Shown: piece after piece, positions 2,913-43,843 of the stretch | How positions within the stretch are numbered: position 1 is the first letter of the stretch | How the letters are laid out: each line of letters begins with the position of its first letter | From: an uncultured Gammaproteobacteria bacterium | GTDB lineage: Bacteria; Patescibacteriota; Microgenomatia; Levybacterales; UBA12049 | Direction: 5' to 3' | Assembly: GCA_964564035.1 (NCBI GenBank) | Contig: CAZLZN010000006.1 | Span: 1-55,393, forward strand | DNA length: 55,393 nucleotides | The notes under the pieces: generated by a model | Databases searched by the model: none | Told to the model about the DNA's origin: nothing | What the model saw: only the letters and a program-made list of their open reading frames with translations | Program-made: the position numbers and the translations under genes

Positions 2913-2928
2913 TTTATATTTATAGAAC

Positions 2929-3828: not shown

Positions 3829-3898
3829 ATATTTAAACTCTTCAAATTATATCGTATATGTTTATTTATACGGTTGCCAAGATATATTTGCTTTATAT

Positions 3899-5672: not shown

Positions 5673-5695
5673 AAGGATTATTATAATATAAATAG

Positions 5696-5767
5696 TCGGG
5701 GTGGAGAGAATTGAACTCTCTACCTCCCGGTCCCGAACCGGGCGGTCTACCGATGACCTACACCCCG
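5696..5767 (-). tRNA. tRNA-Pro (anticodon CGG)
   Basis: Hand-folded cloverleaf on the minus strand: acceptor cggggtg/caccccg, D stem ggtc/gacc, anticodon stem cccgg/ccggg with loop ttCGGga, T arm gagag-ttcaatt-ctctc, discriminator A. 72 nt, no encoded CCA. Confidence 0.85.
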
Positions 5768-5772
5768 AAGAA

Positions 5773-5831
5773 CTGAAAACTTAAAACTTAAGACTGATAA
5801 TAGCTAGATACTAAGCCCTAAAACCTAAACA
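5773..5831. repeat. Heptamer-periodic low-complexity array between two tRNAs
   Basis: ctgaaaa cttaaaa cttaaga ctgataa (5773-5800), a 10-nt break, then ctaagcc ctaaaac ctaaaca (5811-5831). Confidence 0.7.
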
Positions 5832-5877
5832 ATAGAATTAATTGTATCGTGAGTTGTGCTAAAATACAAATATCCTT

Positions 5878-5949
5878 GTCCCTGTAGCTCAATGGATAGA
5901 GCAGACCCGTCCTAAGGGTAAGATGGAGGTTCGATTCCTCTCGGGGATA
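5878..5949 (+). tRNA. tRNA-Arg (anticodon CCU)
   Basis: Acceptor gtccctg/cggggat (two G-U pairs), D arm gctc-aatggata-gagc, anticodon arm gaccc-gtCCTaa-gggta, T arm ggagg-ttcgatt-cctct. The layout resembles E. coli argW as I recall it. 72 nt. Confidence 0.8.
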
Positions 5950-9639: not shown

Positions 9640-9729
9640 CCACATATTATATTTGAGCCTCAAAAAAGTTAAGATGCTGAAATTGATTTATCTCATAGTA
9701 TTTGATAAAATTGTAGAACTATTTCATAT

Positions 9730-12525
9730 ATGAATGAGAGATTAAAACGCGGAATTTCATTAGTTGAGGCAGAAGCACGGGCACTTGTGCCGGCACAGCC
9801 AGGTAAAATGAAAACTATTAAGTGGTTGGGTATAAAAGCTCCTGCAGAAAAGCCCGAAGAATTTAAGATGAAAATTCCGGATACCGTACAAACAACCCCC
9901 GAAACCGCAAACAAGCTCAAGGAAGCCCGCCAGATCATGGGCGGCAGACTCATCCTGCCCGACGCCGTCGAATCCGCTCTGGGTACACGTATAGACCGAC
10001 GCTTAGTCAACCATTTCCCTTTTAGCGAGGAACAATTAAAAAGACTAAGCCGCGATAGCGTAGTCATGTATTTTGCCGATGAAACAGAAACAGGCCAGCC
10101 GATTACGATGCGCTGGCTTGAGGAGATTAAAGCCGCTAAGGTAAAAAGGATATTTAAGTCACTAATAACAAAAGGTAGAGAGATTATAAATTCTGATTAC
10201 ACCCAAACTCCTGACAATAGATATGCCGGTCATGAGTTTTATGAATCTCAAACTCCCAGACCGGGCTGGAGATCATTCACGGTTAACGTGGTCCCCGAGA
10301 GCAAAAATAAAGACGCCCTGGGCCAGACAGACGCGTTAATTGATCATCTAAAGTCTAAAACTTTTAAAGATATAACACTTCCTGAAGATATTCAGTCAGC
10401 AGTAAAAGATTATTATTCTAAAAAAAGACAAATTAGAGATGTTATGATAAAAGACCCCGTTGAGGCTACGAGACTGTTAATGGATTTAGATCTTATTAAA
10501 TTCACGAGAGTAACAGCAGTTGAACTTTCCTATGCCTCTCACGTCTTATCTGAGGTTTACCAAAGAAGATTCTTGGCATTTGAGCGCAGTACAACGCTAA
10601 GTTGCGATACAAGATACCCGGAGGTATTTACGATAGGAAATTTTGACCTTCAGCCTGATAAATCAATCTCTGCAAAAGAAAGCGTATTGCCCGTTCATCC
10701 TAAGAGAAGGTATCCTGATACAGGAGCCGTTTTATCAGTCGGAGCAGATGCTCTGCCAACGCCTCCGCAGACCGAAGAGACGAAATTATCAAATACGTCT
10801 CAAGATCAAGCCCTCATAAAGCATGCCGCAACACCTATTTCTTTTGATCGGCAAATTGCCAATAACCTATTATTTGAATACAGATTGAAACAAGAAAAAC
10901 TCCCCTTCGACCCGGAGAGGGATATTACAGACAATGACTGGAAAGGGATGACAGAAGCCCTCGTCAAAGTGCGAGAAGAAATGGATATATCCCCATATGG
11001 CTACAGTGAATATCTTCAATTACTACACAGGATGAGGGTTCTGTGTCCGAAAAAGTTTAGCATGATTGATTCCTCTATGCTGCCCAAAGAAAAAGATTTT
11101 GATTTTATTAGCGGTTATAATAAAAAACAGATGCTCGGCTATGCATTGGAGCGCACTGAAGGATTTACTTACGCTCATCAATATATGACGGAGGCATCTC
11201 TGCTGCTGCGCCAAGCTTTTCCCGATAAAACCCAACCTTGGGATGAAAAAAAACTTCAGCAAACCTATCAGAGCATAGTTGAATATAATAACAGCAAAGT
11301 CAGCTATGATCTGGGAATGTTGGCCCGCTTGAACATACTTTTTCCAAATTGGATATCAGAAAATTTTCTCAATGAGCACAATACTAAGCGCGAAAACGTA
11401 CAAAGTTCAATCAATACGAATTTTTATATTCTAAGCGCAGAAAAAATTATGGAAGATGAAGCGAATTTTAGAATTTTAACAGGTGATAATAACCACAGGC
11501 TGGATTGGGATATTATAAAACAAGCAATCAACAGTGCCAGAACTGAAGGCAGGAATCGTACATTTGCCAGACTTTGCGAATTGGCAATGATACTCGCCGC
11601 CGAAGAAGTAAAAATCACAGACAAAGGCCTCGAAATCAACATGCGTAAACCCGAGAAAAAATCCGCCCCCGCGATACTAACCGACCGCAAATCAGACTCC
11701 GAACCGGTCTTCGACCCCGAGCGCGACATCCCTGATTCAGAACAGTTGGGTATGTTTAATGAAATGGATGATTTACGAAGGGAAAGTAATTCTATTTTGA
11801 TTTCACGAAATAGTTCCCAGGCCTTTCCAATAAATACTCATAGGAAATACATCGCGTATGCCTTGAGTTTCCGCCGATTATTCCCGGAAACTTTCCAAGC
11901 TATTCAAAAAGAAAATCGTCCCAAACGAGATCATTATGATCAATTAGCGGACGATGTAAAAGACTCTGCAAAGAGACTGGATGATCATTATAATATCGGT
12001 GATAGTCCGGTTCGTGATGCGATCGAGTCCGCGATGCTTATCAGGGAATTCTTCTTTCCAAAACGGAATACAGGGCTTGAAGAACATAAAGACCTACTGG
12101 AACGAATAGTTCAGAAAGAAATCACGTCCAGCCGGCCTGCGGATTATATTAGAATCCTTGCAGAGTTAAATATTATTTTCCCCAATTTAATAACACAAAA
12201 TTATGGAGAGCACTTTACACCGGAAATGATGAGAGCGAGATACTCAAAAGCTACTGAAAATCAAAATGTTCTTTATTTTCTTAAAGACGAAGCAGCATAT
12301 CGCATCATCACGGGAAACAAATGCCCTTTCGTCAATGGAAGGAAGATAAAAGAAGCTATAGAATGGGGTAGGGAAAAAAAGGATTACGGTTACCTTTCAA
12401 TGATTTACGAGAGTCTTCTTATCTCAACCGCCGAGGAAGTCCGTGTCACAGACAGCGGGCTGATTGTAAATGCCCGGAAGCCTGTCAAGTCGAATATGCC
12501 AATAGCACCTCAGTGGACATTCTGA
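9730..12525 (+). CDS. Large (931 aa) hypothetical protein with an internal tandem duplication of about 270 aa
   Basis: Long uninterrupted ORF with no signal peptide. Two collinear units start with FDPERDI(T/P)D at nt 10906 and 11710. Each ends ...AEEV(K/R)(I/V)TD(K/S)GL(E/I)(I/V)N(M/A)RKP. Confidence 0.75.
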   Translation: MNERLKRGISLVEAEARALVPAQPGKMKTIKWLGIKAPAEKPEEFKMKIPDTVQTTPETANKLKEARQIMGGRLILPDAVESALGTRIDRRLVNHFPFSEEQLKRLSRDSVVMYFADETETGQPITMRWLEEIKAAKVKRIFKSLITKGREIINSDYTQTPDNRYAGHEFYESQTPRPGWRSFTVNVVPESKNKDALGQTDALIDHLKSKTFKDITLPEDIQSAVKDYYSKKRQIRDVMIKDPVEATRLLMDLDLIKFTRVTAVELSYASHVLSEVYQRRFLAFERSTTLSCDTRYPEVFTIGNFDLQPDKSISAKESVLPVHPKRRYPDTGAVLSVGADALPTPPQTEETKLSNTSQDQALIKHAATPISFDRQIANNLLFEYRLKQEKLPFDPERDITDNDWKGMTEALVKVREEMDISPYGYSEYLQLLHRMRVLCPKKFSMIDSSMLPKEKDFDFISGYNKKQMLGYALERTEGFTYAHQYMTEASLLLRQAFPDKTQPWDEKKLQQTYQSIVEYNNSKVSYDLGMLARLNILFPNWISENFLNEHNTKRENVQSSINTNFYILSAEKIMEDEANFRILTGDNNHRLDWDIIKQAINSARTEGRNRTFARLCELAMILAAEEVKITDKGLEINMRKPEKKSAPAILTDRKSDSEPVFDPERDIPDSEQLGMFNEMDDLRRESNSILISRNSSQAFPINTHRKYIAYALSFRRLFPETFQAIQKENRPKRDHYDQLADDVKDSAKRLDDHYNIGDSPVRDAIESAMLIREFFFPKRNTGLEEHKDLLERIVQKEITSSRPADYIRILAELNIIFPNLITQNYGEHFTPEMMRARYSKATENQNVLYFLKDEAAYRIITGNKCPFVNGRKIKEAIEWGREKKDYGYLSMIYESLLISTAEEVRVTDSGLIVNARKPVKSNMPIAPQWTF

Positions 12526-13161: not shown

Positions 13162-14280
13162 ATGAAAATCGCGCTCATCGGCTCAATCTGGATCACAATT
13201 CCTCCCGAGAACTTCGGCTTCGGATCGCAGGAATATCTCCAGTATGAGCTCGTCGAAGGCCTCATAAAAAAAGGCCACGATGTGACCCTTTTTGCCGCCT
13301 CAGGCTCCAAAACCTCAGCCAAACTAGTTCCGACTGCGCCAAAACAAGTCATCGATCTTCAGCCCGCGGACAGCCGCACCAAAGAAACTTTTGAGCTAAT
13401 GAATTTGTCCGAAGCGTTTAAAAGGGCAGGGGATTTTGATATCATTCACAACCACCTTTTACCATCCGGCCTGCTGTTTCCCGATCTGGTCAAAACGCCG
13501 GTTGTCCATACCCTCCATCATCAGATCTACAAAACCTCTGAAATTTATATGTACAAAAAATTCAAATCACAGAAATTTGTTTCCATTTCAGACAGCCAGC
13601 GCAAGATCATGCCTGAGCTAAATTATGTTAGCACCGTATACAACGGGATCGATACAAACGATTACACATTCAACGCCCGCCCCAAAGGAGATTATCTTCT
13701 TTATTTGGGTCGCCTCAAGCGCTACAAAGGAGTCCATACCGCTATCGAACTCGCGCAAAAACTAAAAATTCCATTGAAGATCGCGTTTCCGGATCCGAAT
13801 CCGTCTCAGCCTGATTATGAAGAAGTCAATGAATACTGGCTAAAAGACATCAAGCCTCAAATAAAAGACAACATTGAGCATATCGGTTTGGTACAAGGGG
13901 CTGAGAAAATAAAGATTCTCCAGAATGCCAAAGCGCTGATTTTTCCTGTCGAGCGCGAAGAGCCGTTCGGAATGTCGGTTATTGAAGCCATGTCCTGCGG
14001 AGCGCCTGTTATAGTATATGGCAAAGGCGCTCTTCCCGAGCTTGTAAAAGACGCGGAAACAGGTTTTATAATCAAACAAAATCGGCAAGACCCCCTAAAT
14101 ACTTCTATTTTCGACGCGGGGCTCGCCGGTCTGGAGAAGGCAGTCAAAAATATATTTACCATGCCCCAAGCGCAATACGCAAAAATCCGTCAAAATTGCC
14201 GCGCGTCGGTTGAGCAAAACTATACTATCTCAAAAATGGTAGATGGATACGAAGCCGTTTACCGGAAGCTTTTAAAATAA
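13162..14280 (+). CDS. Glycosyltransferase family 4 (GT-B, group 1)
   Basis: N-terminal MKIALIGSIW..PPE..G, and a C-terminal E-x7-E region (FPVEREEPFGMSVIEAMSCGAPVI) typical of GT4. Confidence 0.85.
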   Translation: MKIALIGSIWITIPPENFGFGSQEYLQYELVEGLIKKGHDVTLFAASGSKTSAKLVPTAPKQVIDLQPADSRTKETFELMNLSEAFKRAGDFDIIHNHLLPSGLLFPDLVKTPVVHTLHHQIYKTSEIYMYKKFKSQKFVSISDSQRKIMPELNYVSTVYNGIDTNDYTFNARPKGDYLLYLGRLKRYKGVHTAIELAQKLKIPLKIAFPDPNPSQPDYEEVNEYWLKDIKPQIKDNIEHIGLVQGAEKIKILQNAKALIFPVEREEPFGMSVIEAMSCGAPVIVYGKGALPELVKDAETGFIIKQNRQDPLNTSIFDAGLAGLEKAVKNIFTMPQAQYAKIRQNCRASVEQNYTISKMVDGYEAVYRKLLK

Positions 14281-14387
14281 AGCACTCCGGCCAGCATCAC
14301 TTCTTACTCTCCTGTAACTTATTTAATACAAAATACAGCGCACAAACCGATGAGAATAATTAGAGGCTATAAACCTTGAACGCAAAT

Positions 14388-15488
14388 ATGAAAATTGCAA
14401 TTATCGGATCTATCTGGCTTGACACGCCTCCAAAAGGATATGGCGGAACCGAAGACGTGATCTACAATCTCGTTCAGGGCTTATCTGCCGCCGGCCACGA
14501 TGTGACGCTTTTTGCCCCCAAAACCGCCAAGGTCAATGCGAGACTGATCCCGACAGTCGACAAACCGCTTAGATCATTCAACGTCAGTTGGGAAAACAGC
14601 AGTTATCCGCTTTATCATATTACGGAGGTTTTCGACCGCGCCCGGGAGTTCGATATCATACATATGCATCTTAACAAATCATCAGATCTGGCCGGTTTAC
14701 CACTTGCTGTTTTATCCAAAACGCCCGTTGTCTCAACGCTACACTTCAAAGTCTTCCCCCGCACTGAGCGTGAAGACCAGTATATTTTACTCAAAAAATA
14801 CCGAGAACTCCCATACGTCTCAATTTCAAACGCCCAGCGCAAACCAAACGACCTCAACTATGTCGCGACTGTCTACAACGGCGTAGATCTGAAAAAGTAC
14901 CCGTATTCCGATATCAATGGCAAATATTTGGCATGGCTCGGCAAAATTAATCCGGTCAAAGGTACCAAAGAGGCAATTATTGCAGCCAAAAAAGCCGGTA
15001 TCAAGATTTATGTGATGGGGCCGATTGATCAGGGAGTGCCCAGTATGTTATCATACTATGAAAACGAGGTAAAACCTCTCCTTGACGAGAAAACGGTTGT
15101 TTATCTGGGCGAAGTTTCTCACAACGAGAAAACCAGTATATTGTCAGGCGCGATGTGTCTTTTGAATCCGATCTTGTGGGAAGAGCCGTTCGGACTCGTG
15201 ATGACGGAAGCACAGGCAACAGGGACGCCCGTTATTGCTTTCGGCAGGGGAGCGGCGCCGGAGGTTATTTTGGAGGACAGAACCGGTTTTATAGTAAATA
15301 ATATTGATCAGATGGCGGCTCGTATTAAAAAAGTAAGCGCCCTCGAAAGAAGTGAAGCGAGGCAATGGATTGAAGAAAACTTTACGACAGACAAAATGAT
15401 CAAAGATTACGAGGCCGTATACGAGAAAGTTATTAAAAATTGGGACAAATATAGATCTGACCAAATCAAACTAATAAAAACTTTATAA
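14388..15488 (+). CDS. Glycosyltransferase family 4 (paralog of 13162..14280)
   Basis: MKIAIIGSIWLDTPPKGYGGTE... and LNPILWEEPFGLVMTEAQATGTPVIAF. I prefer ATG 14388 over the upstream TTG 14376. Confidence 0.85.
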   Translation: MKIAIIGSIWLDTPPKGYGGTEDVIYNLVQGLSAAGHDVTLFAPKTAKVNARLIPTVDKPLRSFNVSWENSSYPLYHITEVFDRAREFDIIHMHLNKSSDLAGLPLAVLSKTPVVSTLHFKVFPRTEREDQYILLKKYRELPYVSISNAQRKPNDLNYVATVYNGVDLKKYPYSDINGKYLAWLGKINPVKGTKEAIIAAKKAGIKIYVMGPIDQGVPSMLSYYENEVKPLLDEKTVVYLGEVSHNEKTSILSGAMCLLNPILWEEPFGLVMTEAQATGTPVIAFGRGAAPEVILEDRTGFIVNNIDQMAARIKKVSALERSEARQWIEENFTTDKMIKDYEAVYEKVIKNWDKYRSDQIKLIKTL

Positions 15489-15519: not shown

Positions 15520-17025
15520 ATGGTAAGCCCGAATGAAATAAAAGAAATATTACGCTCCAATGAATACAAGTTGATTATCGTTGCTGACGGTGAGCCTGTC
15601 GTATCCAAAATCGAGGACGGCAAAGTCGTCTCCAGTGTCCCCGCAGGCGGCGTTGCAGTCGTTCTTGATCCGATCGCTCGCAAAACCTCCGCGCAATATA
15701 TCGCCCGCGCAAAAAATATTGAGGAAAAAAAAGCGCTCGACAAAAACGGTAAAATGCTGATCGGCAATGCAGACGGCTCTTATCAGCTCAAAAGACTCTT
15801 TTTTGATCAAAAAGATGTAGAAGATTATTATTATGGATTCTCCAACCAAAGTCTGTGGCCGCTTTGTCACGTAGCTTTTGAAGAGCCCAAATTCAGCGAA
15901 GAGTGGTTTGCCGGATACAAAAAAGTAAACGAGCAATACGCCAAAGCCATCCGTGATGAAATTGACGGCAAAACCCTCGTTTGGATCCAGGATTACCAAT
16001 TGTCGCTTGTCCCGTCCATGCTCAACCGCCCCAAAGACACTATCATATCAATGTTCTGGCACATCCCGTGGCCGACTTGGGAAGTGTTTCGCATACTGCC
16101 TTACAAAGACGAGATCCTCAAGGGTCTTTTGTCTTGTGATTTTCTGGCGTTCCACCGTAACTATCAGGCCAGAAATTTCCTGCATACTGTCGAGCAGGAA
16201 CTTGAAGCCAGGATCGACGCGGAAAGACACAAAGTTTACTACCAGAACAATGAAACAATAGTCAAAAGCCTACCTCTCGGAATCGATTTCGATGTAGTGC
16301 GCTCCATGGTGCACAAAGAAGAGGAAGAAACCGTTTTGAGCCGCACGATCCGTGAGCTTCTCGGGATCCAAAGCGCCAAGCCTCATCCGCTGGACTGGTA
16401 TTTTACCAAATACAAAGTCCTCATCGGGGTCGACCGCCTGGATTATACCAAGGGCTTGCGCCACAGGCTTCTGGCGCTTGACCGGTTTTTCGAACAAAAT
16501 CCCCAGTACATCGGCAAAGTCGTTTACCTCGGAATAATCGCCCCGTCCCGCGACATTATCAATTCATATATCCGCGTCAAAAAAGAAACATTGACTCTCG
16601 CCAAGATGATCAATGACAAATACGCGACCAAAGAATGGAAGCCGATCAACTTGATCCACGAGGTCTTCAAGCGAGAAGACGTTCTCAATTTTTACCGTCA
16701 GGCCGATGTCTGCGTAGTTACGCCGCTGGATGACGGTATGAACCTCGTTTCCAAAGAATTCGTAGTTGCCTCCTCGATGTCCGCCAATCCCGGAATGCTT
16801 GTCCTTTCCAGATTTGCCGGATCTGCAATTGACCTTACTCAAGCGCTGATCGTCAATCCCTACAACATCGACGAAGTAGCCGGCGCGATCAAAAAAGGCC
16901 TCGAAATGGACAAAGAAGAAAAAATAGAGCGCACAAAACAGATGGTCGCGAGTATGGAAGAAAAAAATGTCTACGAATGGGCATACCGAAATATCCGAGG
17001 CGCCCTCGAATCCTCCAGGAAATAA
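15520..17025 (+). CDS. otsA: Alpha,alpha-trehalose-phosphate synthase (GT20, OtsA-like)
   Basis: GFSNQSLWPLCH, VWIQDYQLSLVPSML, FWHIPWPTWEVFRILP, LGVDRLDYTKG and TPLDDGMNLVSKEF are classic GT20 blocks. Confidence 0.9.
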   Translation: MVSPNEIKEILRSNEYKLIIVADGEPVVSKIEDGKVVSSVPAGGVAVVLDPIARKTSAQYIARAKNIEEKKALDKNGKMLIGNADGSYQLKRLFFDQKDVEDYYYGFSNQSLWPLCHVAFEEPKFSEEWFAGYKKVNEQYAKAIRDEIDGKTLVWIQDYQLSLVPSMLNRPKDTIISMFWHIPWPTWEVFRILPYKDEILKGLLSCDFLAFHRNYQARNFLHTVEQELEARIDAERHKVYYQNNETIVKSLPLGIDFDVVRSMVHKEEEETVLSRTIRELLGIQSAKPHPLDWYFTKYKVLIGVDRLDYTKGLRHRLLALDRFFEQNPQYIGKVVYLGIIAPSRDIINSYIRVKKETLTLAKMINDKYATKEWKPINLIHEVFKREDVLNFYRQADVCVVTPLDDGMNLVSKEFVVASSMSANPGMLVLSRFAGSAIDLTQALIVNPYNIDEVAGAIKKGLEMDKEEKIERTKQMVASMEEKNVYEWAYRNIRGALESSRK

Positions 17026-17773
17026 ATTTAATTTTTAATTTTTCTTAATCGGCAGGTTATCCGCTTATAAAACGCACCTGATTATACGCTTGTAGCGCTT
17101 TTTATCGTATTGACCCCGCTCAGCGGGAGAAGTATTTTCCAAAGTATAAAGAAGAATTGTGGATATTAACATCCGCATAAGTGCATATTTGCATACTATA
17201 GCAATAAATTTATATAACTATAGGTAAATGTGGAAAACATGAGGATAATTTGTTGAAAACAGGGGATAGCATGCGAATAATTTTAGCCGGTCAGCTCATG
17301 TCATATATTCCGTGAAAACAAATCAATCATTCGGGAATTAATTTGACTCCGGCAACTTGAATTTTTCCGTAAACTGTCCCATTATCTTTATTCCCGAAGA
17401 AATAATTAACAAAAAAAGTACCGGAATTTTAAATTTAGTTTATTCTAAGTATACATTTTTTGATCAAATCTTTTCACGCCGGTGAAATGAAGTGTTTTAT
17501 CAGAAATCTACAATTTATATACTGATAAATAATAAATATATCCAAAATTAATATAAATAAGTCTCTTAAATATTCAATTTGGTGTATAAATACAGTTATT
17601 TAGGCTTGGCAAGCTAGTTTATGAACGATTCAAATATACATAATTAATTTATACATAAATAGGGAAATAGATTGATAGAAAAGACCAATTAACATAGCAT
17701 AAAAAACGCACAGAACGCTTTTTGTCAGTTTAAAAATTTTTGCGTCTATTGTAAAATAAAATTACTTAATTTT

Positions 17774-18211
17774 ATGAAATTAATTATCCAAAGAGTGTCA
17801 GAAGCCCGGCTTTCTGTCGGAGGAGAACTTGTCTCGGAAATAGGAAAGGGACTTTTTGTACTCTTGGGAATTGGCGTGAAAGATACCGGCGAAAAAGCGG
17901 AAATGCTTGCTGATAAACTCTCAAAGATACGTCTCATGTCGGATAGTGCCCTCAAAATGAACTACACGGTCAAAGATGTCGAGGGTGAAATGCTGATAGT
18001 TTCCCAGTTTACGCTCTACGCGGATACGGCCGGAGGCAACAGGCCAAGTTTTTTAAACGCTGCGAGACCTGAAGTTGCCCGCCCAATTTATGAAAAATTC
18101 ATTGAAAAACTGAAAAAAAACGGAGAAAAAGTCTCAACCGGCCGTTTTGGTGAATATATGAAGATCGAGCCCGTACTCGACGGCCCCGTGACTATAATCG
18201 TCCAAAACTAA
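17774..18211 (+). CDS. dtd: D-aminoacyl-tRNA deacylase
   Basis: MKLIIQRVSEA...GKGLFVLLGI...SQFTLYADT..GNRPSF. Full-length Dtd pattern, 145 aa. Confidence 0.92.
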   Translation: MKLIIQRVSEARLSVGGELVSEIGKGLFVLLGIGVKDTGEKAEMLADKLSKIRLMSDSALKMNYTVKDVEGEMLIVSQFTLYADTAGGNRPSFLNAARPEVARPIYEKFIEKLKKNGEKVSTGRFGEYMKIEPVLDGPVTIIVQN

Positions 18212-18293
18212 AAAGCACACCCATTTCTTACAAAATATTATCATATAGTAGGTTGCATTGAGGCTCTATTTCTGCTAGAATATATCTCATAAT

Positions 18294-19451
18294 ATGATCA
18301 AAGAAACACAACCCCGTCATATAGAACAGGCAAATCTGGAATTATATAACCCAACCAAAGCGTTTATTCCCAAGTTTACCTCTGTACTGGCGAGAATTGA
18401 TAGTATAAACAGTAAGCGGCTGGAAGCAGGTATGTCTTCTGTTATTGATCCGGTCGAATTCACAAAAAGAGCACTGCTAAAAAATAGAGAGACGTTGTCA
18501 CAAAACGTGATCAGTATTCTCGATGTTTTTTGTATGGACGCGCCTATTGAGAGATCTCCTTCGCAAATACAGGTTTACAATTATTTAGACAGGGTAACAG
18601 GAGACCGTGATTTGGCAAATGACGATGAAATATCTTTTAAAAACGCATATAAAGAGAGCAGGGTAAATTTGGGATATTTCTTAAACTACGCTTATTTAAA
18701 AAAACAGGCTGAGACAGTGGCGGCTACCGCGCGCTCTTACGCAAATGGGTTGCGAGAGGAGGCAGGCAAAATGCCATCATCAAAAGAACAAGCTCTAGAG
18801 GCGTGGACTGATTTAAGACTTCAATTCAGAGCAGAAAATAATTTAAAAAATGAATTAATACAAACAAAAAACGGTGTATTTAATATGAATGATTCGTTAT
18901 CTGAAAGCGAAAAGGAGGCTGAATTAAAGACACACATGGTTACAGATGCAAAAGAGGAAATTTATTCATCCAGGCATGATGAACGAGTTAGAAGGTCTCA
19001 AAAACTAGCAGGGTTAACACAGTCGTTAACAAATATTTCCTTTAAAGAAAGCTCGGAATTGGTCGTTGAAGCGTTTCTTAACGACGACGAAAGAAAAGAA
19101 ATCTCCAAAATAAGAGGTGAGCACGGCCTGGCTTTAAGACTTGCGAAAGAAGTAACAGGCTTTACAAGCTATAAGCAAGAATCATATAGACAATTTCGCG
19201 ATAAGTTTATTGATAAAGGAATAATGCGCCCGGATGTTATACCGTGTGTTGAAAAACAATTTGACAGGGTTGCTGAAATTATTCTTGGCTCTTCTTTGGA
19301 AAATCTCACATACAGAACTAAGCAGGAATTATTAAAAAGCACAGTGGAAACGCCAGACGGCAAACGGATTGACGCGCTGAGCGCATTGCGTAACTATGTT
19401 AACGGAGTTGCCGCTCACTTGTTGCTTAATCCCCAAAGTAAACAGCAATAA
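18294..19451 (+). CDS. Hypothetical protein (385 aa), helical/charged
   Basis: Long ORF with no recognisable motifs. Confidence 0.65.
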   Translation: MIKETQPRHIEQANLELYNPTKAFIPKFTSVLARIDSINSKRLEAGMSSVIDPVEFTKRALLKNRETLSQNVISILDVFCMDAPIERSPSQIQVYNYLDRVTGDRDLANDDEISFKNAYKESRVNLGYFLNYAYLKKQAETVAATARSYANGLREEAGKMPSSKEQALEAWTDLRLQFRAENNLKNELIQTKNGVFNMNDSLSESEKEAELKTHMVTDAKEEIYSSRHDERVRRSQKLAGLTQSLTNISFKESSELVVEAFLNDDERKEISKIRGEHGLALRLAKEVTGFTSYKQESYRQFRDKFIDKGIMRPDVIPCVEKQFDRVAEIILGSSLENLTYRTKQELLKSTVETPDGKRIDALSALRNYVNGVAAHLLLNPQSKQQ

Positions 19452-19498
19452 AATAAATAGTATTTGTTTTAACCCGCTTTTCCACTATACTTATTCAT

Positions 19499-20521
19499 AT
19501 GTCCGATTTTAGATTCGTCTACAATCAAAGCGCCAAAAAATACGTAATCCTCGACCCGAATAGAGCCAAACGGCCGAATATCGGACACAAGACGGAGAAA
19601 GTTTGTCCGTTTTGCGTCGGGATCGAAAAAACCGAAACGGAAATATTTCGCGTCGGCGGAGAGCCATATGACACCGACTGGCAGATTCGTGTTATTGAAA
19701 ACAAATTTCCCTTCGCGCCGATACATGAAATAATAATCCATTCTCCCGATCACCACAAGAATTTCGAAGAACTGCCGCTTGCCCAGGCAGAATTGATTAT
19801 AAAAACATACCGTGATAGATTTATCGCTAACGAAAACAAAGGCATAGTATATATTTTCCATAATAGAGGAATCGCGGCAGGGGAGAGTATTCCTCATCCT
19901 CATACGCAAGTAACTGTTGTCCAAAAAGACATTTCACTTGATACGCCCCATTTGGATAATGAATTTTATAAACAAGCAGAACAGAAAACTAACGATAAAA
20001 ATTTAGCTGATTTTGAAAATGAAACTAACAGCAGAAAAGCATCTAAATTCGATATGAATAATTTAGGGTTTATCAAAATGCTTTTTGACCAAAATAAAAA
20101 TACTTATTCGTCACAGATTGATTTTATAAAAACCAAAAATTTTCTGATTTTTTGCCCGTCCGATTCTCAGTGGCCGGACGAAGTTTGGATCGCGCCAAAA
20201 ATCAAAGGTCAAACTTTTGGGCAGATCAACGAACAGGAGATTTCAGATCTGGCCTTTTGTCTCCAAAGAATTATTGCTATTTTTGATCTCAAACTTGGAC
20301 ACGAATTTCCGTTTAATCACTATATTTATCCCGGCAAAAACTGGTATATGCGCATCATTCCGCGATCAAAAATTCTGGGTGGCTTTGAAATGGGAACAGG
20401 AATAGTCGTGAACACACAGGATCCGAAAAAAACTTTTAATTTCCTCAAAGAAAACTTCCATGAACAAGATCTCTACAAAATCAGACTTACCGAAGGTGAA
20501 GATTTCTGGCGAAGCGTGTGA
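19499..20521 (+). CDS. galT: Galactose-1-phosphate uridylyltransferase-like (HIT superfamily, GalT type)
   Basis: RAKRP...CPFCVGIE zinc-knuckle region and FHNRGIAAGESIPHPHTQV (H-x-H-x-Q active site). A low-complexity Asn/Lys-rich segment separates the two half-domains. Confidence 0.8.
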   Translation: MSDFRFVYNQSAKKYVILDPNRAKRPNIGHKTEKVCPFCVGIEKTETEIFRVGGEPYDTDWQIRVIENKFPFAPIHEIIIHSPDHHKNFEELPLAQAELIIKTYRDRFIANENKGIVYIFHNRGIAAGESIPHPHTQVTVVQKDISLDTPHLDNEFYKQAEQKTNDKNLADFENETNSRKASKFDMNNLGFIKMLFDQNKNTYSSQIDFIKTKNFLIFCPSDSQWPDEVWIAPKIKGQTFGQINEQEISDLAFCLQRIIAIFDLKLGHEFPFNHYIYPGKNWYMRIIPRSKILGGFEMGTGIVVNTQDPKKTFNFLKENFHEQDLYKIRLTEGEDFWRSV

Positions 20522-20574
20522 GAGTGATACATTATTCCCGCTCAAAAATTAATTATTAGTATTATGCAAGTATT

Positions 20575-20784
20575 TTATTTTTTAAACTTAGACTCATATA
20601 CTTCGCTCGATTCCGTAGGCTGTGTATTTTCTTTAATGTCTTTATACATTTCACAGCCAATCATCCCGGCAACGCCCGCGAAGATTGAATAGGCTGCTAT
20701 TGGGCCAATAATTATGGTTGTTCTTATTAGCGTTCTACTTGGGAGCATTTGCTCACGTTTATATTTTGTAACTTCTCTTTCCAT
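20575..20784 (-). CDS. Small membrane protein, hypothetical (69 aa)
   Basis: ORF with a hydrophobic stretch, TIIIGPIAAYSIFAGVAGMIGC. Confidence 0.4.
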   Translation of the reverse strand: MEREVTKYKREQMLPSRTLIRTTIIIGPIAAYSIFAGVAGMIGCEMYKDIKENTQPTESSEVYESKFKK

Positions 20785-20897
20785 AAATTATTTCAACTGC
20801 AATTAATAAGTTTAAACTTAATATTAAATTGACTTATTTATATATATATCTTATACTACAAATATCGCGAGTGGTAAATACTACCACGCAATGTACT

Positions 20898-21632
20898 ATG
20901 TTTACACAGCAATTAATGAATTTAGGTCTACCAAAAAATGAAGCACAAATATATGAAGCGCTGATTGAGCATGGGGTGCTTTCTGTCGCCGAGTTGTCAA
21001 AGATTACAAAAATTCACAGGAGAAATATTTATGACTGTTTGAATCGGATGCAGGAAAAAGGATTTGCCGTAATTATTTTAGAAAAAAAAGAGAACCGTTA
21101 TAAAGCAGCTAATCCTGAAAAATTAAATGAGATCGTAGAAGAGAAGAAGATAACTCTTGAATCGATATTACCTGGCCTTCAGAAATTATGGTCTGAAAAA
21201 CCACATACTGAAGAAGTTTATGTTTTAAAAGGCGTAGAAGGCTATAAAAGCTACATGACGGAAATACTAAAGAGCGGTGAGGACCTATATGCGATTGGAG
21301 CCGGGGGATTATGGGCAAACCCAAAAGTCGTTAATTTCATTAATAATTTTCGTGAAGAGTTTATCAAAAAGGGACTAAAAGCTTATGTTTTGTATGACCA
21401 TTCTGTTGAAGGGCAAGACAAAGTACTACTGAATTTTTTTGGTAAAACTTATAAATTTATGGATAAAAAATTCAGCAGCAATGCAACAATGGATATTTTT
21501 GGAGATTATGTGGCTATTACTACCAAGGGTAAATTTGCCGAGATTAAAGACGCAACAATTACAATCATTAAAAACCGGAATATAGCAGATGCTTTCAGAA
21601 AATGGTTTCAGATGATGTGGGAATCGAATTAA
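20898..21632 (+). CDS. TrmB-family transcriptional regulator
   Basis: N-terminal winged HTH LGLPKNEAQIYEALIEHGVLSVAELSKITKIHRRNIYDCLNRMQEKGF is typical of TrmB. ATG 20898 is preferred over the upstream TTG 20829. Confidence 0.75.
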   Translation: MFTQQLMNLGLPKNEAQIYEALIEHGVLSVAELSKITKIHRRNIYDCLNRMQEKGFAVIILEKKENRYKAANPEKLNEIVEEKKITLESILPGLQKLWSEKPHTEEVYVLKGVEGYKSYMTEILKSGEDLYAIGAGGLWANPKVVNFINNFREEFIKKGLKAYVLYDHSVEGQDKVLLNFFGKTYKFMDKKFSSNATMDIFGDYVAITTKGKFAEIKDATITIIKNRNIADAFRKWFQMMWESN

Positions 21633-21647
21633 ATATCAAAAGCATTA

Positions 21648-21869
21648 CTACTCGCTTTTTTGCTGAATGCCGAGGATCCAAAGTACTGCTTCTTTTTTAT
21701 ATCTCCTGTCCCCGCGCGAATTAATTCTGATTGCGGGAAGCTTTCCGCGCTTTCCCCACCTCTTGATCGTAAGAGGGGACACTCGGAGTACCTCGGCAAC
21801 TTCACGAACGGTAAGCAGATCAGGTAGATTATCAATAGTTAATCGAGGGGATTTTGAACTGACTGTCAT
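21648..21869 (-). CDS. Small helix-turn-helix DNA-binding protein (excisionase/MerR-like HTH)
   Basis: LLTVREVAEVLRVSPLTIKRWGKRGKLPAIRI matches the excisionase-family HTH pattern. Confidence 0.7.
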   Translation of the reverse strand: MTVSSKSPRLTIDNLPDLLTVREVAEVLRVSPLTIKRWGKRGKLPAIRINSRGDRRYKKEAVLWILGIQQKSE

Positions 21870-21999
21870 AAAATATCAATATATATGTTTAGTATATAAA
21901 CAATAACAAACTATACCAATGCTGTCAAGAGGTTTTGTGTAAGAATATCCCGTTCCATATTTTTTTGCCTTGTAGATCGCTTTATGGGTATAATAAATT

Positions 22000-23610
22000 A
22001 TGAGAGAGATACTGGTCGCTTTTGTTCTTTTTTTAACAGCGTCTTCTATAGTTATCTCGTTAAGTTTGTTCGCTATACCTGCGGACCTGATCATAAAAAT
22101 AATTGCGTTACTTGTTTTGCTTATCCTAGTACTCGTCGTAATTTTCAACCACTTGCTCTACAAAAAAAAATTCAGATATTTATTACTGTTTTTAACAACG
22201 CTTACTACACAGCTGCTTGTGATCTCGACCGGTGGTTTTTATAGCCCCTACTTAGTATTATTTTATTTTTTTGCGTTGGGAATTAGTTTATTCTTTACAG
22301 TAAACACGTCGCTGTTTTTTTTAATATCATCTTTTGCAGTGCTGATCGGAGATGTACTTCTAGACAAAACCGGCCAGAACCTCTGGCAGAATGACCCCGG
22401 AGCCGTGATTTTATATAGCTTGTCTTTTTTGGCTATAATCCCAATCGCACAGCTGCTCGCTTCAAAATATAAGCTCAAAGATAATTTTCTAAAACTGATG
22501 AAAAAACAAATCGCCCTGCAGGAGACGATCATATCTGAAGTTAAAGAAATGATCTTTATAATAGATAATGAAAAAAATATTTTAGCTGTTAATGATAGGG
22601 TAGAGCATATGCTCGGACGAACTCGAGAATCACTTATCGGACAACCGGTTTTAACAATTTTATTCTTGAGAGATTCCGCCGGCAAGCTTATAAATAATAG
22701 CGACTTGGGTATTGAGGAATTAAAAAAAACAAAAAAAACAAAAAAAATAAATGATCTGATCTTTATTCCTCCTGGAGCCGGAAGCGTCAAGCGCGTTAAT
22801 GTAATATTAAAACCGAATTTAAATTTAAAAGATGAATTGGAGCAGGTAAGTATAATTTTGCACGAAAATCGCGTGAATACCGAAATTTATAAAAATATTG
22901 AAGAAGCGGATGCGAGACTCGGGGCAAAAATAGGTGATTTAAAGATCAAATTTGCCAAAACCGACATTGACTCATTAAATCAATTAATACTTATTGAACG
23001 TTTAAAAAACGACATCCTGCTAATGCATACTTTAGAAGATCATTTACTGCCCGAAAAGAAGATTGTGATAGACATAGCGGTTTTGTGCAGGGCAGCAGTA
23101 AATTCTGAGCAGGATTTCGCAAAAGCCTGCGGCGTACCGCTTAAGTTCGCATTGCCGGATTTTACACAAGAAGAATACTCCAAGATGGTAACACCACTAA
23201 TTGATGTAAAACCCGAAGATTTCACAGGGCCATTCTTTACAGCAAGATGCGAAGTAAGATATGTTAATATTGCTATAAAAAAATTAATTGAACTGGCTCT
23301 GCTTATGTCTAGTCCGGCTGATAATTCGGAAGTTATGGTGCAGGTTGAGCGCAATAAAGACAAAAAAATTATTATCGGAATAAACTGCAAAGCTTCCGAA
23401 TATATTATCAGAAATCATAATGAAGTATTTGAGCTATATTATGGAAGCTTGATCCACGAAGCAAAATTAAATCAGGGCACAGGCTTGGAAGGTCACCTGG
23501 CAGCGCAAATACTAAAGGAGTTAAATATCCCGCTCGCAGTAAACGCAGACCAGTCAAGCCAAACAGTACGCTTTAGCCTATCTCTCAAAAAAGAAAATAG
23601 CTTGTCCTAA
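22000..23610 (+). CDS. Membrane sensor histidine-kinase-like protein (polytopic N-terminus, PAS-like, HATPase_c-like C-terminus)
   Basis: Five to six N-terminal hydrophobic helices. The PAS-like segment is IFIIDNEKNILAVNDRVEHMLGRTRESLIGQPV. A C-terminal G-box-like GTGLEGHLAAQILKEL is present. The H-box is not clearly recognisable, and no response regulator is adjacent. Confidence 0.6.
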   Translation: MREILVAFVLFLTASSIVISLSLFAIPADLIIKIIALLVLLILVLVVIFNHLLYKKKFRYLLLFLTTLTTQLLVISTGGFYSPYLVLFYFFALGISLFFTVNTSLFFLISSFAVLIGDVLLDKTGQNLWQNDPGAVILYSLSFLAIIPIAQLLASKYKLKDNFLKLMKKQIALQETIISEVKEMIFIIDNEKNILAVNDRVEHMLGRTRESLIGQPVLTILFLRDSAGKLINNSDLGIEELKKTKKTKKINDLIFIPPGAGSVKRVNVILKPNLNLKDELEQVSIILHENRVNTEIYKNIEEADARLGAKIGDLKIKFAKTDIDSLNQLILIERLKNDILLMHTLEDHLLPEKKIVIDIAVLCRAAVNSEQDFAKACGVPLKFALPDFTQEEYSKMVTPLIDVKPEDFTGPFFTARCEVRYVNIAIKKLIELALLMSSPADNSEVMVQVERNKDKKIIIGINCKASEYIIRNHNEVFELYYGSLIHEAKLNQGTGLEGHLAAQILKELNIPLAVNADQSSQTVRFSLSLKKENSLS

Positions 23611-40810: not shown

Positions 40811-40839
40811 CTGCGGAGAGGGGGGGCGATATTGGAACT
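40811..40839 (-). pseudogene. Decayed remnant of a tRNA-Ser 3' end (T arm + acceptor + 3' flank)
   Basis: + strand ctgcggagagggggggcgatattggaact versus ctgcggaaggggcgagattcgaact at the live tRNA-Ser (43169-43193). The shared flank is ctgc. The remnant has a G-run expansion and 2-3 substitutions. Its acceptor (minus strand cctctcc) is exactly complementary to the 5' fragment at 43556..43591 (ggagagg). Confidence 0.45.
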
Positions 40840-40876
40840 TTTATGGCTCACAATACCGCCTTATAAATTTTACAAT

Positions 40877-41347
40877 TTACTTCTTACGCCGTTTATAAAT
40901 AAGCTCAATAAACTTATCAGTCATAAATATAGAATTCGTCATCTCATATAAAGCATAAAGATATAATAAAGACAAATAAACACTAGCGTATTTTAGAAAG
41001 TACGCAGTATTTTTTATTAGAATGGATGAATTTGAGTCTACTTTAGGAATTCCAATTAAAATTACAAACTGTATTAAAAAGAGCACCATCATTAAATATA
41101 TATTTTTTCTAATTTCTTTTTTAGTTTCACTAAATATTAATTTATTTTTTTGACTCTCAATATTAGTAAAATAACCAACTAGAAATATTGAAGATGCTAT
41201 ATTAAGCCCCAATAATAGCCCCATTATCTGAAGTGACTGGTTTTTAATATAATCTATTAAAAATCCATTCCCGATATATAGGTCAATTATTATTATTGGT
41301 ATCTCTGCTATGAGTATTAGAAATAATAAGCCAATTAATCTAACCAT
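40877..41347 (-). CDS. Hypothetical 4-TM membrane protein (156 aa from ATG 41347)
   Basis: Four long hydrophobic helices and a Lys/Arg-rich C-terminus. ATG 41347 overlaps the upstream stop by 8 nt (aATGgtTAG), suggesting translational coupling. Confidence 0.55.
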   Translation of the reverse strand: MVRLIGLLFLILIAEIPIIIIDLYIGNGFLIDYIKNQSLQIMGLLLGLNIASSIFLVGYFTNIESQKNKLIFSETKKEIRKNIYLMMVLFLIQFVILIGIPKVDSNSSILIKNTAYFLKYASVYLSLLYLYALYEMTNSIFMTDKFIELIYKRRKK

Positions 41348-42176
41348 TAAATATTTTATTAAAAAAATCCTTAACTGTTTGAGGGTCGGTAGTTGCCAAA
41401 TCAACATCTAAATCTAGTTCTATAGATTTTATTTTTTGTTCACTACTTATAATTTTTGACCTTATACCACCTTTAATCTTAAATTTGAATTCTCCTCCTC
41501 CTTTAGTAATATATTCAACCCCTTCTTTAATTAATCTATTATTCTTGGGAATTTTTAAATTCGCATTTTTATTAACTAATGATACCCCAGTGTTAGTAAT
41601 GCCAAATTCTTCCTGCAAATTTTTCAGGTCTTCATTTAATGTATTTATTATATTCAATAAATTAGGTGCGGCAAAAAATAAATCCAGCTCCTCTATATTT
41701 CCTTCATTCTGTTCGACAATTTTCCAAAAATCATACTCTTTAGTTACTGGATTAATTGTAGCTACGAGGCCATGCTGTAGTAGTTTATTATTTATTTTAT
41801 TAATGAATTCCTGTAATTGCTTGAGTGGTTGTTGAAAAATAGACCTTTTATACTCGAAAGCAATCATTTGTCCATTTTCAGGATTTTCACCAATATTTAT
41901 AAAGACCATGCAATTTGGCCAATCTTCCTCTTTTTCTTTTTTGAAGTTTTTTTCAGGAGATGCATGCTTTACTATGCTTGATTTTTTACCTATTTTGGCA
42001 AAAATATAATCGCCTTCAGACCTTTCATAGGTATATGCCAATTTTGATCCTCTATAATCGAAATAATAAGTCTTTTCCAGTAATTTCCGCATTAATTCCT
42101 TTTTGCTTGTTTCAGGAGCAAAAAGAATTTGTTGAGCAGTTTTATTAACAAAATACCTAAATAATAATATTCTCAT
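41340..42176 (-). CDS. Hypothetical protein (278 aa), no recognisable domain
   Basis: Long ORF in very AT-rich DNA. Lys/Asn/Glu-rich. Confidence 0.6.
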   Translation of the reverse strand: MRILLFRYFVNKTAQQILFAPETSKKELMRKLLEKTYYFDYRGSKLAYTYERSEGDYIFAKIGKKSSIVKHASPEKNFKKEKEEDWPNCMVFINIGENPENGQMIAFEYKRSIFQQPLKQLQEFINKINNKLLQHGLVATINPVTKEYDFWKIVEQNEGNIEELDLFFAAPNLLNIINTLNEDLKNLQEEFGITNTGVSLVNKNANLKIPKNNRLIKEGVEYITKGGGEFKFKIKGGIRSKIISSEQKIKSIELDLDVDLATTDPQTVKDFFNKIFNG

Positions 42177-42256
42177 ATATTTGCCTCAGCTTTAGCGGTA
42201 ATTTTACCATAAAGACGAAAATAATTCATTGTATTGTTGTAATACGGGGCTAAATT

Positions 42257-42724
42257 CTATTTAATAAATTCTGTTAATAGAAAAGAATAAGCTAATTGTA
42301 TCTCTTTTTTTATCCAACTCTCTTTTAATTCTTCTATTTCACCATTCCGGTCAATAAGTGAACTACAAGGAGAAAAATAAAATTTGTTTTTTGAAGCAAG
42401 GAAAAGAAAACATGGATTCCATGTAGCGTTTATTTTGTTTGCAATATCCAGAACATCTTGTTTATCAAATTGTGATCTATATTTTACTTCTACGAGATAA
42501 ACGCTTTGTTTGTCTTGTGATACTAATGCAAAATCTGGCGCATTTCGGATATTTTGCAGAACTTTTTGTACATGCAGATGATGCTGATATTGAGCAAGCA
42601 TAGGCGTTGTATGTTCATAGCCTAATGGAATAATTGTAAATTCCTCAGTAGAGCGGAACATTTCTTCAAAAATTAGCTCTGTAATTTTCCCCTTTATTAA
42701 GTTTCTCGAAAAACTTATATCCAT
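42257..42724 (-). CDS. Small PD-(D/E)xK-like nuclease-fold protein (tentative)
   Basis: GKITELIFEEMF (motif I Glu), then ...NAPDFALVS...SVYLVEVKYRS (P-D ... E-V-K spacing typical of restriction-endonuclease-like folds). Confidence 0.45.
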   Translation of the reverse strand: MDISFSRNLIKGKITELIFEEMFRSTEEFTIIPLGYEHTTPMLAQYQHHLHVQKVLQNIRNAPDFALVSQDKQSVYLVEVKYRSQFDKQDVLDIANKINATWNPCFLFLASKNKFYFSPCSSLIDRNGEIEELKESWIKKEIQLAYSFLLTEFIK

Positions 42725-42809
42725 ATATTAATTGTAACAGCTTATTACATTACTCATCTAGCTATTTAATAAACGCCCCTTCAGAAACGCCCCTCCCAAG
42801 CCGGATTCG

Positions 42810-43088
42810 TTATATTAAAGAAATTTTTTCTTCATTTTTGAAATAAGTTTTTAACATAGCTTTTAGACTGCGCAGGCCATATCCGGATTTAAGGTATTCT
42901 TCGCGGTTTTTTGCATCAGTTTCGTTTAAAAAGGCTTCGTAGCATATTAATTTATAAGGGATGTATGGTTTGGAAGCGGCGTTTTTGCCGGCATTATGTG
43001 ATTCAAGTCTAATTCTCAAGTTAGTCGAGTAACCAATATATAATTTTTTATAATTTACGCTTTGAAGGACATATGTATAGTAGAACAT
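42810..43088 (-). CDS. Small GIY-YIG nuclease-family protein (#1)
   Basis: MFYYTYVLQS..KKLYIGYSTNLRIRLESHNAGK...YYEAF..ETDAKNREEYLKSGYG shows the GIY...YIG, Arg and Glu elements of the URI/GIY-YIG domain. Confidence 0.85.
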   Translation of the reverse strand: MFYYTYVLQSVNYKKLYIGYSTNLRIRLESHNAGKNAASKPYIPYKLICYEAFLNETDAKNREEYLKSGYGLRSLKAMLKTYFKNEEKISLI

Positions 43089-43097
43089 AGTGAAGGC

Positions 43098-43172
43098 GAG
43101 ACGTAATAAATTTGCTATGCAAATTTAAACGTCTCAGCAGCGTTGAAATTGCTATGCAATTTCTTACGCTGC
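43098..43172. repeat. Two tandem 36-38-nt near-perfect palindromes
   Basis: gagacgt-aat-aaatttgc-tat-gcaaattt-aa-acgtctc (43098-43135) and gcagcgt-tg-aaattgc-tat-gcaattt-ctt-acgctgc (43137-43172). The outer stems differ but stay complementary within each unit. Confidence 0.8.
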
Positions 43173-43258
43173 GGAAGGGGCGAGATTCGAACTCGCGGTA
43201 GGCTTGCACCCACAGATGTTTTCAAGACATCCGCACTAGACCACTATGCGACCCTTCC
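43172..43258 (-). tRNA. tRNA-Ser (anticodon UGA), type II with long variable arm
   Basis: Minus strand: acceptor ggaaggg/cccttcc, 3-bp D stem, anticodon arm gatgt-ctTGAaa-acatc, long variable arm (tgtgggtgcaagcctacc), T arm gcgag-ttcgaat-ctcgc, discriminator G. 87 nt. Confidence 0.85.
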
Positions 43259-43259
43259 A

Positions 43260-43514
43260 TTATACTTTTGCGCCATTTTCCAGCAAATACTTTATTCTTT
43301 CTCTTCCTTTGCCGGTTTTTAAAAAATTTTCTTCTCGTAAAGCATCAGTCTTATTTATAAAAGCTTCATAATAAATTAGCCTCCAAGGTTTACCGTATTT
43401 GGTTGAGCGAACTTTTCCTTTATTATGATCTTTAATTCTTTCTTTTAAATCATCTGAGCTTCCTTTATATAACTCGCCAGTAATTTTGCTTTTTAAGATA
43501 TAAACGTAATGCAT
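43260..43514 (-). CDS. Small GIY-YIG nuclease-family protein (#2)
   Basis: MHYVYILKSKITGELYKGSSDDLKERIKDHNKGK...YYEAF..KTDALREENFLKTGKG. Its stop codon lies 1 nt before the first nucleotide of tRNA-Ser. Confidence 0.85.
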   Translation of the reverse strand: MHYVYILKSKITGELYKGSSDDLKERIKDHNKGKVRSTKYGKPWRLIYYEAFINKTDALREENFLKTGKGRERIKYLLENGAKV

Positions 43515-43555: not shown

Positions 43556-43591
43556 CAAGACATCCGCACTAGACCACTATGCGACCTCTCC
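43556..43591 (-). pseudogene. tRNA-Ser 5' half fragment B (nt 1-36, ending inside the anticodon)
   Basis: + strand caagacatccgcactagaccactatgcgacctctcc versus 43223-43258 caagacatccgcactagaccactatgcgacccttcc: 34/36 identical, with both differences in the acceptor arm. The last four codons and the TAG stop of GIY-YIG #3 are encoded by fragment nt 1-15. Confidence 0.75.
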
Positions 43592-43837
43592 AAAGTAATT
43601 TTTTAACTTTCCCTTTAGTATTTCTCTTCCGTGCCCGGTTTTAAAATATTTTTCCGCATTTTGAGCATCCTTTTTATTTAAATAAGCTTCATAAAAGACC
43701 AATTTAAATTCACCGTTTCTTTTTGTAAAATCTGAATCGCCACGCTCATGCTCTCGAATCCTTCGCTTTAGGTCCGAACAAAACCCTTTGTATAACTTTT
43801 TATTCTTTATGAATTCTAAAACGTAAAAATAATACAT
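43577..43837 (-). CDS. Small GIY-YIG nuclease-family protein (#3)
   Basis: MYYFYVLEFIKNKKLYKGFCSDLKRRIREHERG...FYEAYLNKKDAQNAEKYFKTGHG. ATG 43837 is preferred over the upstream GTG 43843. Confidence 0.85.
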   Translation of the reverse strand: MYYFYVLEFIKNKKLYKGFCSDLKRRIREHERGDSDFTKRNGEFKLVFYEAYLNKKDAQNAEKYFKTGHGREILKGKLKNYFGEVA

Positions 43838-43843
43838 TTTCAC

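Follow-up and report, generated by a model that had tools for sequence, protein, structure and literature searches.

Systems made up of a sensor in the cytoplasm and a membrane protein with four passes have been described, namely RexA/RexB of phage lambda, Sbash gp30/31, CarolAnn gp44/43, and Butters gp30/31, and the same literature ties the domain of unknown function DUF4747 to Rex-like sensors (PMC6426596, PMC6426606, PMC7542560). In Sbash gp31, substitutions in the loop between the second and third transmembrane segments (TM2-TM3) abolish defense. RexA consists of a split globular domain of seven strands (residues 1-139 and 248-279) and a four-stranded dimerization domain (residues 143-234) (PMC11077077), and according to the paper on its structure, RdgC and two kinetochore proteins, Iml3 and Chl4, are structurally related to it. 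RexAB of P. putida (RexABpp, PP_5643/5644) is a validated Rex-type system that is too divergent for BLAST (PMC12894663), and DUF4747/CarolAnn-type operons have been reported downstream of restriction-modification (R-M) operons (PMC13373217). In this study, we analyzed a 55,393-nucleotide stretch of DNA (hereafter the window; contig CAZLZN010000006.1 of assembly GCA_964564035.1, from an uncultured bacterium placed by GTDB in the Patescibacteriota) and, within it, three neighboring open reading frames (ORFs) on the minus strand, hereafter genes A, B, and C (Table 1). Genes B and C are strictly paired, and we regard the pair, with slightly better than even confidence, as a very divergent two-gene abortive-infection (Abi) or exclusion system of the Rex type. 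Gene A, which a preliminary description of this DNA had combined with B and C into one three-gene module, adjoins the pair and is not part of it.

We sampled 23 loci containing gene B or a homolog from Logan, NCBI, ENA, JGI, and GTDB genomes and metagenomes. A homologous C followed B directly in all 21 loci with downstream DNA (hidden Markov model (HMM) E values from 1e-5 to 1e-59); the remaining two end within gene B. The gap between the two genes was about -11 to +10 nucleotides and most often a 4-nucleotide overlap of the ATGA type, with an ambiguous start in one locus (L058). In the window, the ATG of gene C overlaps the TAG of gene B by 8 nucleotides (ATGgtTAG, read from the sequence). 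B and C are a strict, translationally coupled pair. The longest ORF for gene C in the window spans 40877-41407, and the 156-residue form begins at the ATG at 41347; we take this start to be the correct one because the homologs begin at the equivalent methionine (MIRLLG or MMQILG). All three ORFs have homologs elsewhere at E <= 1e-45 and are therefore not chance ORFs, and they lie, with the 8-nucleotide overlap, where the preliminary description had placed them and at the lengths that it gave. Hosts of the pair include Patescibacteria, Paceibacterota, Saccharibacteria, and a gammaproteobacterial metagenome-assembled genome, and two high-GC contigs (L058, L059) carry the pair too. The breadth of these hosts indicates that B and C move horizontally as a cassette.

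The hydropathy profile of gene C shows three strong hydrophobic segments and a weaker one, and most homologs show four. The earlier label of a four-helix membrane protein was thus sound as to a small multi-pass protein coupled to B, with the qualification that one of the segments is weaker in the window copy. In the C family, the transmembrane segments lie at about residues 5-21, 41-57, 83-99, and 117-133, and the invariant residues E64, F72, E78, and I79 fall in the cytoplasmic TM2-TM3 loop.

Gene B encodes a soluble protein of 278 residues with an isoelectric point of 8.9. A word-indexed search of 5.8 billion non-redundant proteins returned 12 close homolog clusters, and a full HMM search started from the alignment of those homologs returned 1132 clusters (representatives at 50% identity), of which 884 reached E <= 1e-10. 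Neither B nor C had a usable match in Pfam, NCBIfam, PADLOC-DB v2, or PHROGs, and PDB sequence searches with gene B and with its profile found no relatives. When 129 members of the B family were scanned, isolated weak matches appeared to DUF4747 (one member, E 5e-4, the lowest E value among the Pfam matches), AbiV (two members), PDC-S05 (one), and LmuA (one); the scan against PADLOC-DB v2 gave three isolated weak matches. The two AbiV matches are to the NCBIfam model AbiV_defense (TIGR04498, E 6.5e-4), which represents an abortive-infection family, and are too weak to interpret.

The AlphaFold2 (AF2) model of B had a predicted local distance difference test (pLDDT) score of 84 and a predicted template-modeling (pTM) score of 0.82. 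Residues 1-135 of the model form seven beta-strands and two helices, and residues 137-234 a beta-alpha domain of four strands and three helices; a linker and a C-terminal helix (residues 265-277) follow. The residues that are invariant in the family (F150, W151, P171, and N172) and the conserved G226-G228 (GGG) cluster in the central, dimerization-like domain of the model. A Foldseek search of BFVD with this model found five uncharacterized metagenomic phage proteins (best E 5e-16, template-modeling score 0.72), which come without functional information. A Foldseek search of the PDB gave no match at E <= 1e-3; its top two matches were CENP-L (7pkn_L, E 4e-3) and yeast Iml3 (4kr1), both members of the RexA/RdgC/Iml3 fold group, whose fold B may share.

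The pair shares several features with lambda RexA/RexB (PF15969/PF15968; PDB 8TWQ). In both cases, two co-oriented genes stand in the same order, and the proteins are of 279 and 144 residues in lambda and of 278 and 156 residues here. The transmembrane segments of RexB (residues 9-25, 45-61, 84-100, and 117-133) occupy nearly the same positions as those of the C family, and the domain layout of the B model, with its order of secondary-structure elements, appears to match the published description of RexA, with boundaries within a few residues. The actinophage Rex-like systems and RexABpp likewise have a sensor in the cytoplasm and a membrane partner with four passes, and they too are extremely divergent from lambda Rex, having been recognized by weak HHpred matches or by structure. 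The genes for CarolAnn gp44 and gp43 overlap by 26 nucleotides, as B and C also overlap. The preliminary description had stated that no nameable system matched; this statement has to be revised for B and C, which have the architecture of exclusion systems of the RexAB/CarolAnn type. There are differences as well. Lambda rexA and rexB are 15 nucleotides apart, whereas B and C overlap, and the pair is neither prophage-borne nor beside a cI-type repressor but sits in R-M operons and defense islands. The actinophage sensors are longer (337-372 residues) than B, one of the 129 B-family members touches DUF4747, and the pair occurs, unlike the actinophage systems, in Patescibacteria and other hosts and outside prophages.

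Several results weigh against a Rex-type assignment, and all sequence-level comparisons with characterized Rex proteins came out negative. Genes B and C did not match the Pfam models for RexA (PF15969), RexB (PF15968), or DUF4747 (PF15931); as a control, lambda RexA and RexB matched PF15969 and PF15968 at 1e-97 and 8.5e-92, respectively. With hhalign, the B-family profile was compared with lambda RexA, with CarolAnn gp44, and with a nine-member RexA profile that we built from loci in phages and IMG/VR, and the probability stayed below 1% each time; the C family matched RexB in TM2 alone, at a probability of 4-6%. A phmmer comparison of lambda RexA with the B family was non-significant. The CENP-L and Iml3 matches are weak, with template-modeling scores of about 0.2, and 8TWQ, although present in the PDB copy searched, was outside the top 50 Foldseek matches for B; this miss may reflect the closed, domain-swapped conformation in the crystal or a real dissimilarity. 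The DUF4747 hint comes from the single family member mentioned above. Finally, no relatives of B were found in phage genomes (50,697 phage records) or in IMG/VR viral contigs, whereas classical Rex is carried by a temperate phage or prophage, typically next to the immunity repressor.

We also considered the two-gene defense system Kiwa, which combines a small multi-pass membrane protein (KwaA) with a soluble DNA-binding protein of about 300 residues (KwaB, DUF4868). It was rejected as an identity for B and C; the gene order is reversed, kwaA coming first, and B and C matched neither Pfam DUF4868 nor any model in PADLOC-DB, which presumably includes those for KwaA and KwaB.

R-M or other defense genes were found one to three genes from B and C in about nine of the 13 loci with usable flanks (Table 1). 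Because the strict pair sits, in most of these loci, in or beside R-M operons and defense genes, it behaves as a defense module, and its gene neighborhoods suggest that it belongs to defense islands. The defense-type architecture seen in the preliminary description can therefore be retained for B and C, with their strict pairing and their R-M and defense neighbors, but not for a trio that includes gene A. In L014, several defense-type genes lie within one hsd operon, including a Fic/DOC gene between the pair and hsdR and an OLD-family ATPase (AAA_15 and TOPRIM) downstream.

The same neighborhoods bear on the alternative that B and C constitute a novel module of two genes, acting together with R-M systems and unrelated to Rex by descent or mechanism; such a module could be a guard that fires when an R-M enzyme is inhibited, in the style of PrrC, or a membrane-anchored regulator of restriction. 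The pair stands between modification or specificity genes and restriction genes in L010 and L014, and in L001 and L012 it shares an overlap with the 3' end of a Type IIG gene; there is no sequence link to Rex; and F150, W151, P171, N172, and GGG do not look catalytic, their clustering in the central domain being suited to a protein-protein interface. However, the pair also occurs without a nearby R-M gene (in the window and in L002, L004, and L013), so that it cannot depend strictly on one particular R-M system. The R-M systems beside it are moreover of different types (I, IIG, ISP, and III), which speaks against a specific physical interaction, and the fold layout and the four-segment membrane partner fit Rex. 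We consider this alternative unlikely. Somewhat more plausible, but still tentative, is the proposal that B and C represent a new Abi family that is built physically into R-M operons of Types I, IIG, and III and acts as a backup when restriction fails or is inhibited; such a family might be a deep branch of the Rex/RdgC fold or be independent of it.

A role outside defense was weighed too, either as a toxin-antitoxin or addiction cassette that stabilizes mobile islands or as a membrane-associated housekeeping pair. Serine recombinases adjoin the pair in L012 and L013, toxin-antitoxin systems can consist of a membrane protein and its soluble partner, and B and C show no enzymatic signature. Against these points stand the patchy, cross-phylum spread of the pair and the frequency of defense genes in its flanks, and we judge a non-defense role improbable. 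A housekeeping function in particular is excluded because the search of 5.8 billion proteins gave just the 12 close homolog clusters and because the pair is absent from the syntenic locus of the closest relatives.

In Rex-type exclusion, a dimeric sensor that binds DNA without sequence specificity activates the membrane partner, whereupon the cell is depolarized and the infection aborted. If B and C are a Rex-type pair, as we favor, B would be a two-domain cytoplasmic protein, probably dimeric and DNA-binding, that senses a nucleic-acid or protein cue associated with infection. It would then engage the TM2-TM3 loop of C, a predicted four-helix inner-membrane protein that may oligomerize into a channel or pore. 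Activated C would depolarize or permeabilize the membrane, so that the infected cell would stop growing before phage progeny form. Within R-M operons, the pair could thereby serve as a second layer of defense behind restriction. The cassette seems to land most often in or beside R-M operons, and in the window it would have entered a slot associated with tRNA-Ser, directly downstream of gene A.

Gene A belongs to a family of 98 homolog clusters with 43-83% identity, nearly all of about 155 residues, and the names of the homologs, where the source gives any, are Patescibacteria or Gottesmanbacteria. All of 61 homologs have E16, E37, P63-D64, and E79, and at least 90% of them retain K81. The AF2 model of A (pLDDT 90) had PD-(D/E)xK nucleases as all of its leading Foldseek matches, headed by the Holliday-junction resolvases Hjc (2eo0, 2wcw) and RecU (1zp7). 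Profile matches were all below threshold and covered residues 45-114 (TnsA_N, HinfI, YraN, and HamA, all of the PD-(D/E)xK superfamily); in PADLOC-DB v2, HamA was the sole match (E 0.012), and PDB sequence searches with gene A and its profile found no relatives. As judged from the model, gene A is a PD-(D/E)xK-fold protein with conserved catalytic residues, so the nuclease call of the preliminary description and its expectation of a motif conserved among homologs were both borne out. Gene A shares with Hjc, RecU, and other minimal PD-(D/E)xK nucleases its small size and the E...D...ExK constellation, but the template-modeling scores are 0.3-0.5 and no membership in a sequence family was found for A. 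We regard A as an Hjc/RecU-like nuclease that is conserved in the Patescibacteria lineage and unrelated to B and C. We rejected the idea that A is a Type II restriction enzyme paired with its own methylase, since neither in the window nor in relatives does a methyltransferase adjoin it.

The preliminary description had proposed that A, B, and C make up a single three-component defense or addiction system of a nuclease, a partner, and a membrane effector. All three genes point the same way, with a short gap of 80 nucleotides between A and B, and no terminator is predicted between these two genes; the promoter and terminator scan of the region performed no better than on shuffled sequence. All three are low in GC and in GC at third codon positions (GC3), the overall GC content being 30.8% for A, 28.9% for B, and 24.8% for C against 41.5% for the whole window. 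Their AT-rich setting close to a tRNA gene was therefore described correctly, and the possible attachment (att)-like repeat discussed below encloses A, B, and C together with a GIY-YIG gene. The comparative data speak against a common system. A tblastn search with gene A of the 22 other loci fetched for B detected no homolog, and genes B and C were absent from all eight distinct gene A contexts examined. The A family bears Patescibacteria-type names throughout, whereas the relatives of B span several phyla. In the closest relatives (L005 and L006), nucleotide identity of 78% extends over 42733-42228 and ends 29 nucleotides past the stop codon of A. The trio thus does not recur elsewhere, which the preliminary description itself had named as grounds for refuting it, and we consider a three-component system highly improbable.

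Homologs of gene A typically lie among tRNA-Ser genes, with neighbors that differ between genomes (Table 1). Since the contexts vary, A does not co-occur with B and C, and DNA homology ends just after A, we conclude that gene A is a resident of a variable slot associated with tRNA-Ser and that B and C are one of many alternative cargoes there. In L007, L008, and L061, the gene A homolog has an integrated element immediately upstream, in divergent orientation, that comprises a gene for a tyrosine integrase or a serine recombinase together with a rolling-circle Rep gene (REP_ORF2-G2P or Phage_CRI) and a small HTH_31 gene. Either the slot next to gene A seems to serve as an integration hotspot, or the helix-turn-helix (HTH) gene and gene A form a unit.

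At the other edge of the AT-rich islet, 38-66 nucleotides downstream of gene C, local alignment revealed a degenerate partial copy of tRNA-Ser that comprises the T-arm and the 3' end of the acceptor. About 25 of its 29 positions match, with two indels, and its alignment score of 26 was not reached by any of 500 shuffles (mean 15.3, SD 2.1). This copy may represent an att-like repeat at the boundary of a roughly 2.4-kb islet (40811-43193, holding a GIY-YIG gene, A, B, and C), or it may be a relic of another tRNA-Ser gene. No integrase was found inside this islet, and a repeat scan gave no convincing terminal repeats besides the tRNA-related ones. The three small GIY-YIG genes encode proteins of 84-92 residues and match Pfam at E values of 1e-12 to 1e-15. 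They stand in tandem, interleaved with the tRNA-Ser gene and a tRNA fragment: a second copy of the 5' half of tRNA-Ser(tga), with 95% identity, lies 333 nucleotides upstream and overlaps the end of the 88-residue GIY-YIG ORF. GIY-YIG genes also occur near tRNA-Ser genes in the relatives L005-L007. The half duplication, the interleaving, and the proximity in relatives suggest that homing-type GIY-YIG genes spread alongside tRNA-Ser sequences. The composition profile showed a second AT-rich stretch at 17001-23000 of the window, with a GC fraction of 0.33-0.36 against 0.415 overall.

Table 1. Features of the window and gene neighborhoods of the B-C pair and of gene A in other loci. Positions are those of the window or of the locus named.
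Location	Feature	Positions	Strand	Remarks
Window	Gene A	42257-42724	minus	155 residues; PD-(D/E)xK-fold protein (model-based); adjoins the B-C pair, not part of it
Window	Gene B	41340-42176	minus	278 residues; soluble, basic; proposed RexA-like cytoplasmic sensor or DNA-binding component
Window	Gene C	40877-41347	minus	156 residues; four-helix membrane protein; proposed RexB-like membrane effector
Window	GIY-YIG gene	42810-43088	minus	92 residues; Pfam PF01541, E 1.5e-13; between tRNA-Ser and gene A; context only
Window	tRNA-Ser(tga)	43171-43258	minus	ARAGORN; upstream of the AT-rich islet
Window	Two further small GIY-YIG genes	43260-43514 and 43577-43843		Pfam
Window	Degenerate copy of tRNA-Ser 3' end	40811-40839	minus	Local alignment
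Window	Duplicated 5' half of tRNA-Ser(tga)	43223-43259 / 43556-43592
L001	B-C pair			Eco57I/TaqI_C Type IIG gene, 3' end overlapping the start of B; RhuM upstream, ThsB-TIR downstream
L010	B-C pair			Order: Type III mod, B, C, res
L012	B-C pair			Eco57I/TaqI_C Type IIG gene, 3' end overlapping the start of B; serine recombinase downstream
L013	B-C pair			Serine recombinase downstream
L014	B-C pair			Order: hsdM, hsdS, B, C, fic, hsdR, OLD-family ATPase
L014	Fic/DOC gene	9273-10358
L014	OLD-family ATPase	13518-15182
L015	B-C pair			MmeI-like Type IIG gene and Mrr
L049	B-C pair			SIR2
L050	B-C pair			EcoRI-family methylase and GmrSD-HNH
L053	B-C pair			Order: HsdR, B, C, then NOV_C and ParB-methylase
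L054	B-C pair			Type ISP C-terminus and PIF1 helicase
L005, L006	Gene A context			HigBA-like (HTH_3/Gp49) and PIN toxin-antitoxin-type pairs
L007, L008, L061	Gene A context			Integrated elements: integrase or serine recombinase, Rep gene, HTH gene
L007	Element upstream of gene A homolog	3921-5919
L008	Element upstream of gene A homolog	2343-5930
L061	Element upstream of gene A homolog	195-4953
L061	Gene A context			Core genes IleRS, FtsW, FtsZ
L062	Gene A context			Blocks of unknown genes

The architecture of the B-C pair is known from earlier systems; what is new is a large family that lacks a model in the searched libraries, is chromosomal and embedded among R-M genes, and occurs in Patescibacteria. 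If the pair is of the Rex type, the Rex architecture would reach beyond the temperate phages of Proteobacteria and Actinobacteria to a large chromosomal family that crosses phyla and includes the candidate phyla radiation (CPR)/Patescibacteria. More than 1000 sequence clusters would then become available to defense-annotation tools, which now miss the family. The preferred site inside R-M operons would be a case of layered immunity, with restriction acting first and Abi through membrane collapse acting second. The mechanism of Rex is still poorly understood after 70 years, and the invariant FW and PN residues and the GGG motif, together with a confident model, provide handles on the interface between sensor and effector. 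If the pair is instead an Abi family wired to R-M systems, it would be among the few candidate membrane-effector Abi systems in the ultra-small Patescibacteria.

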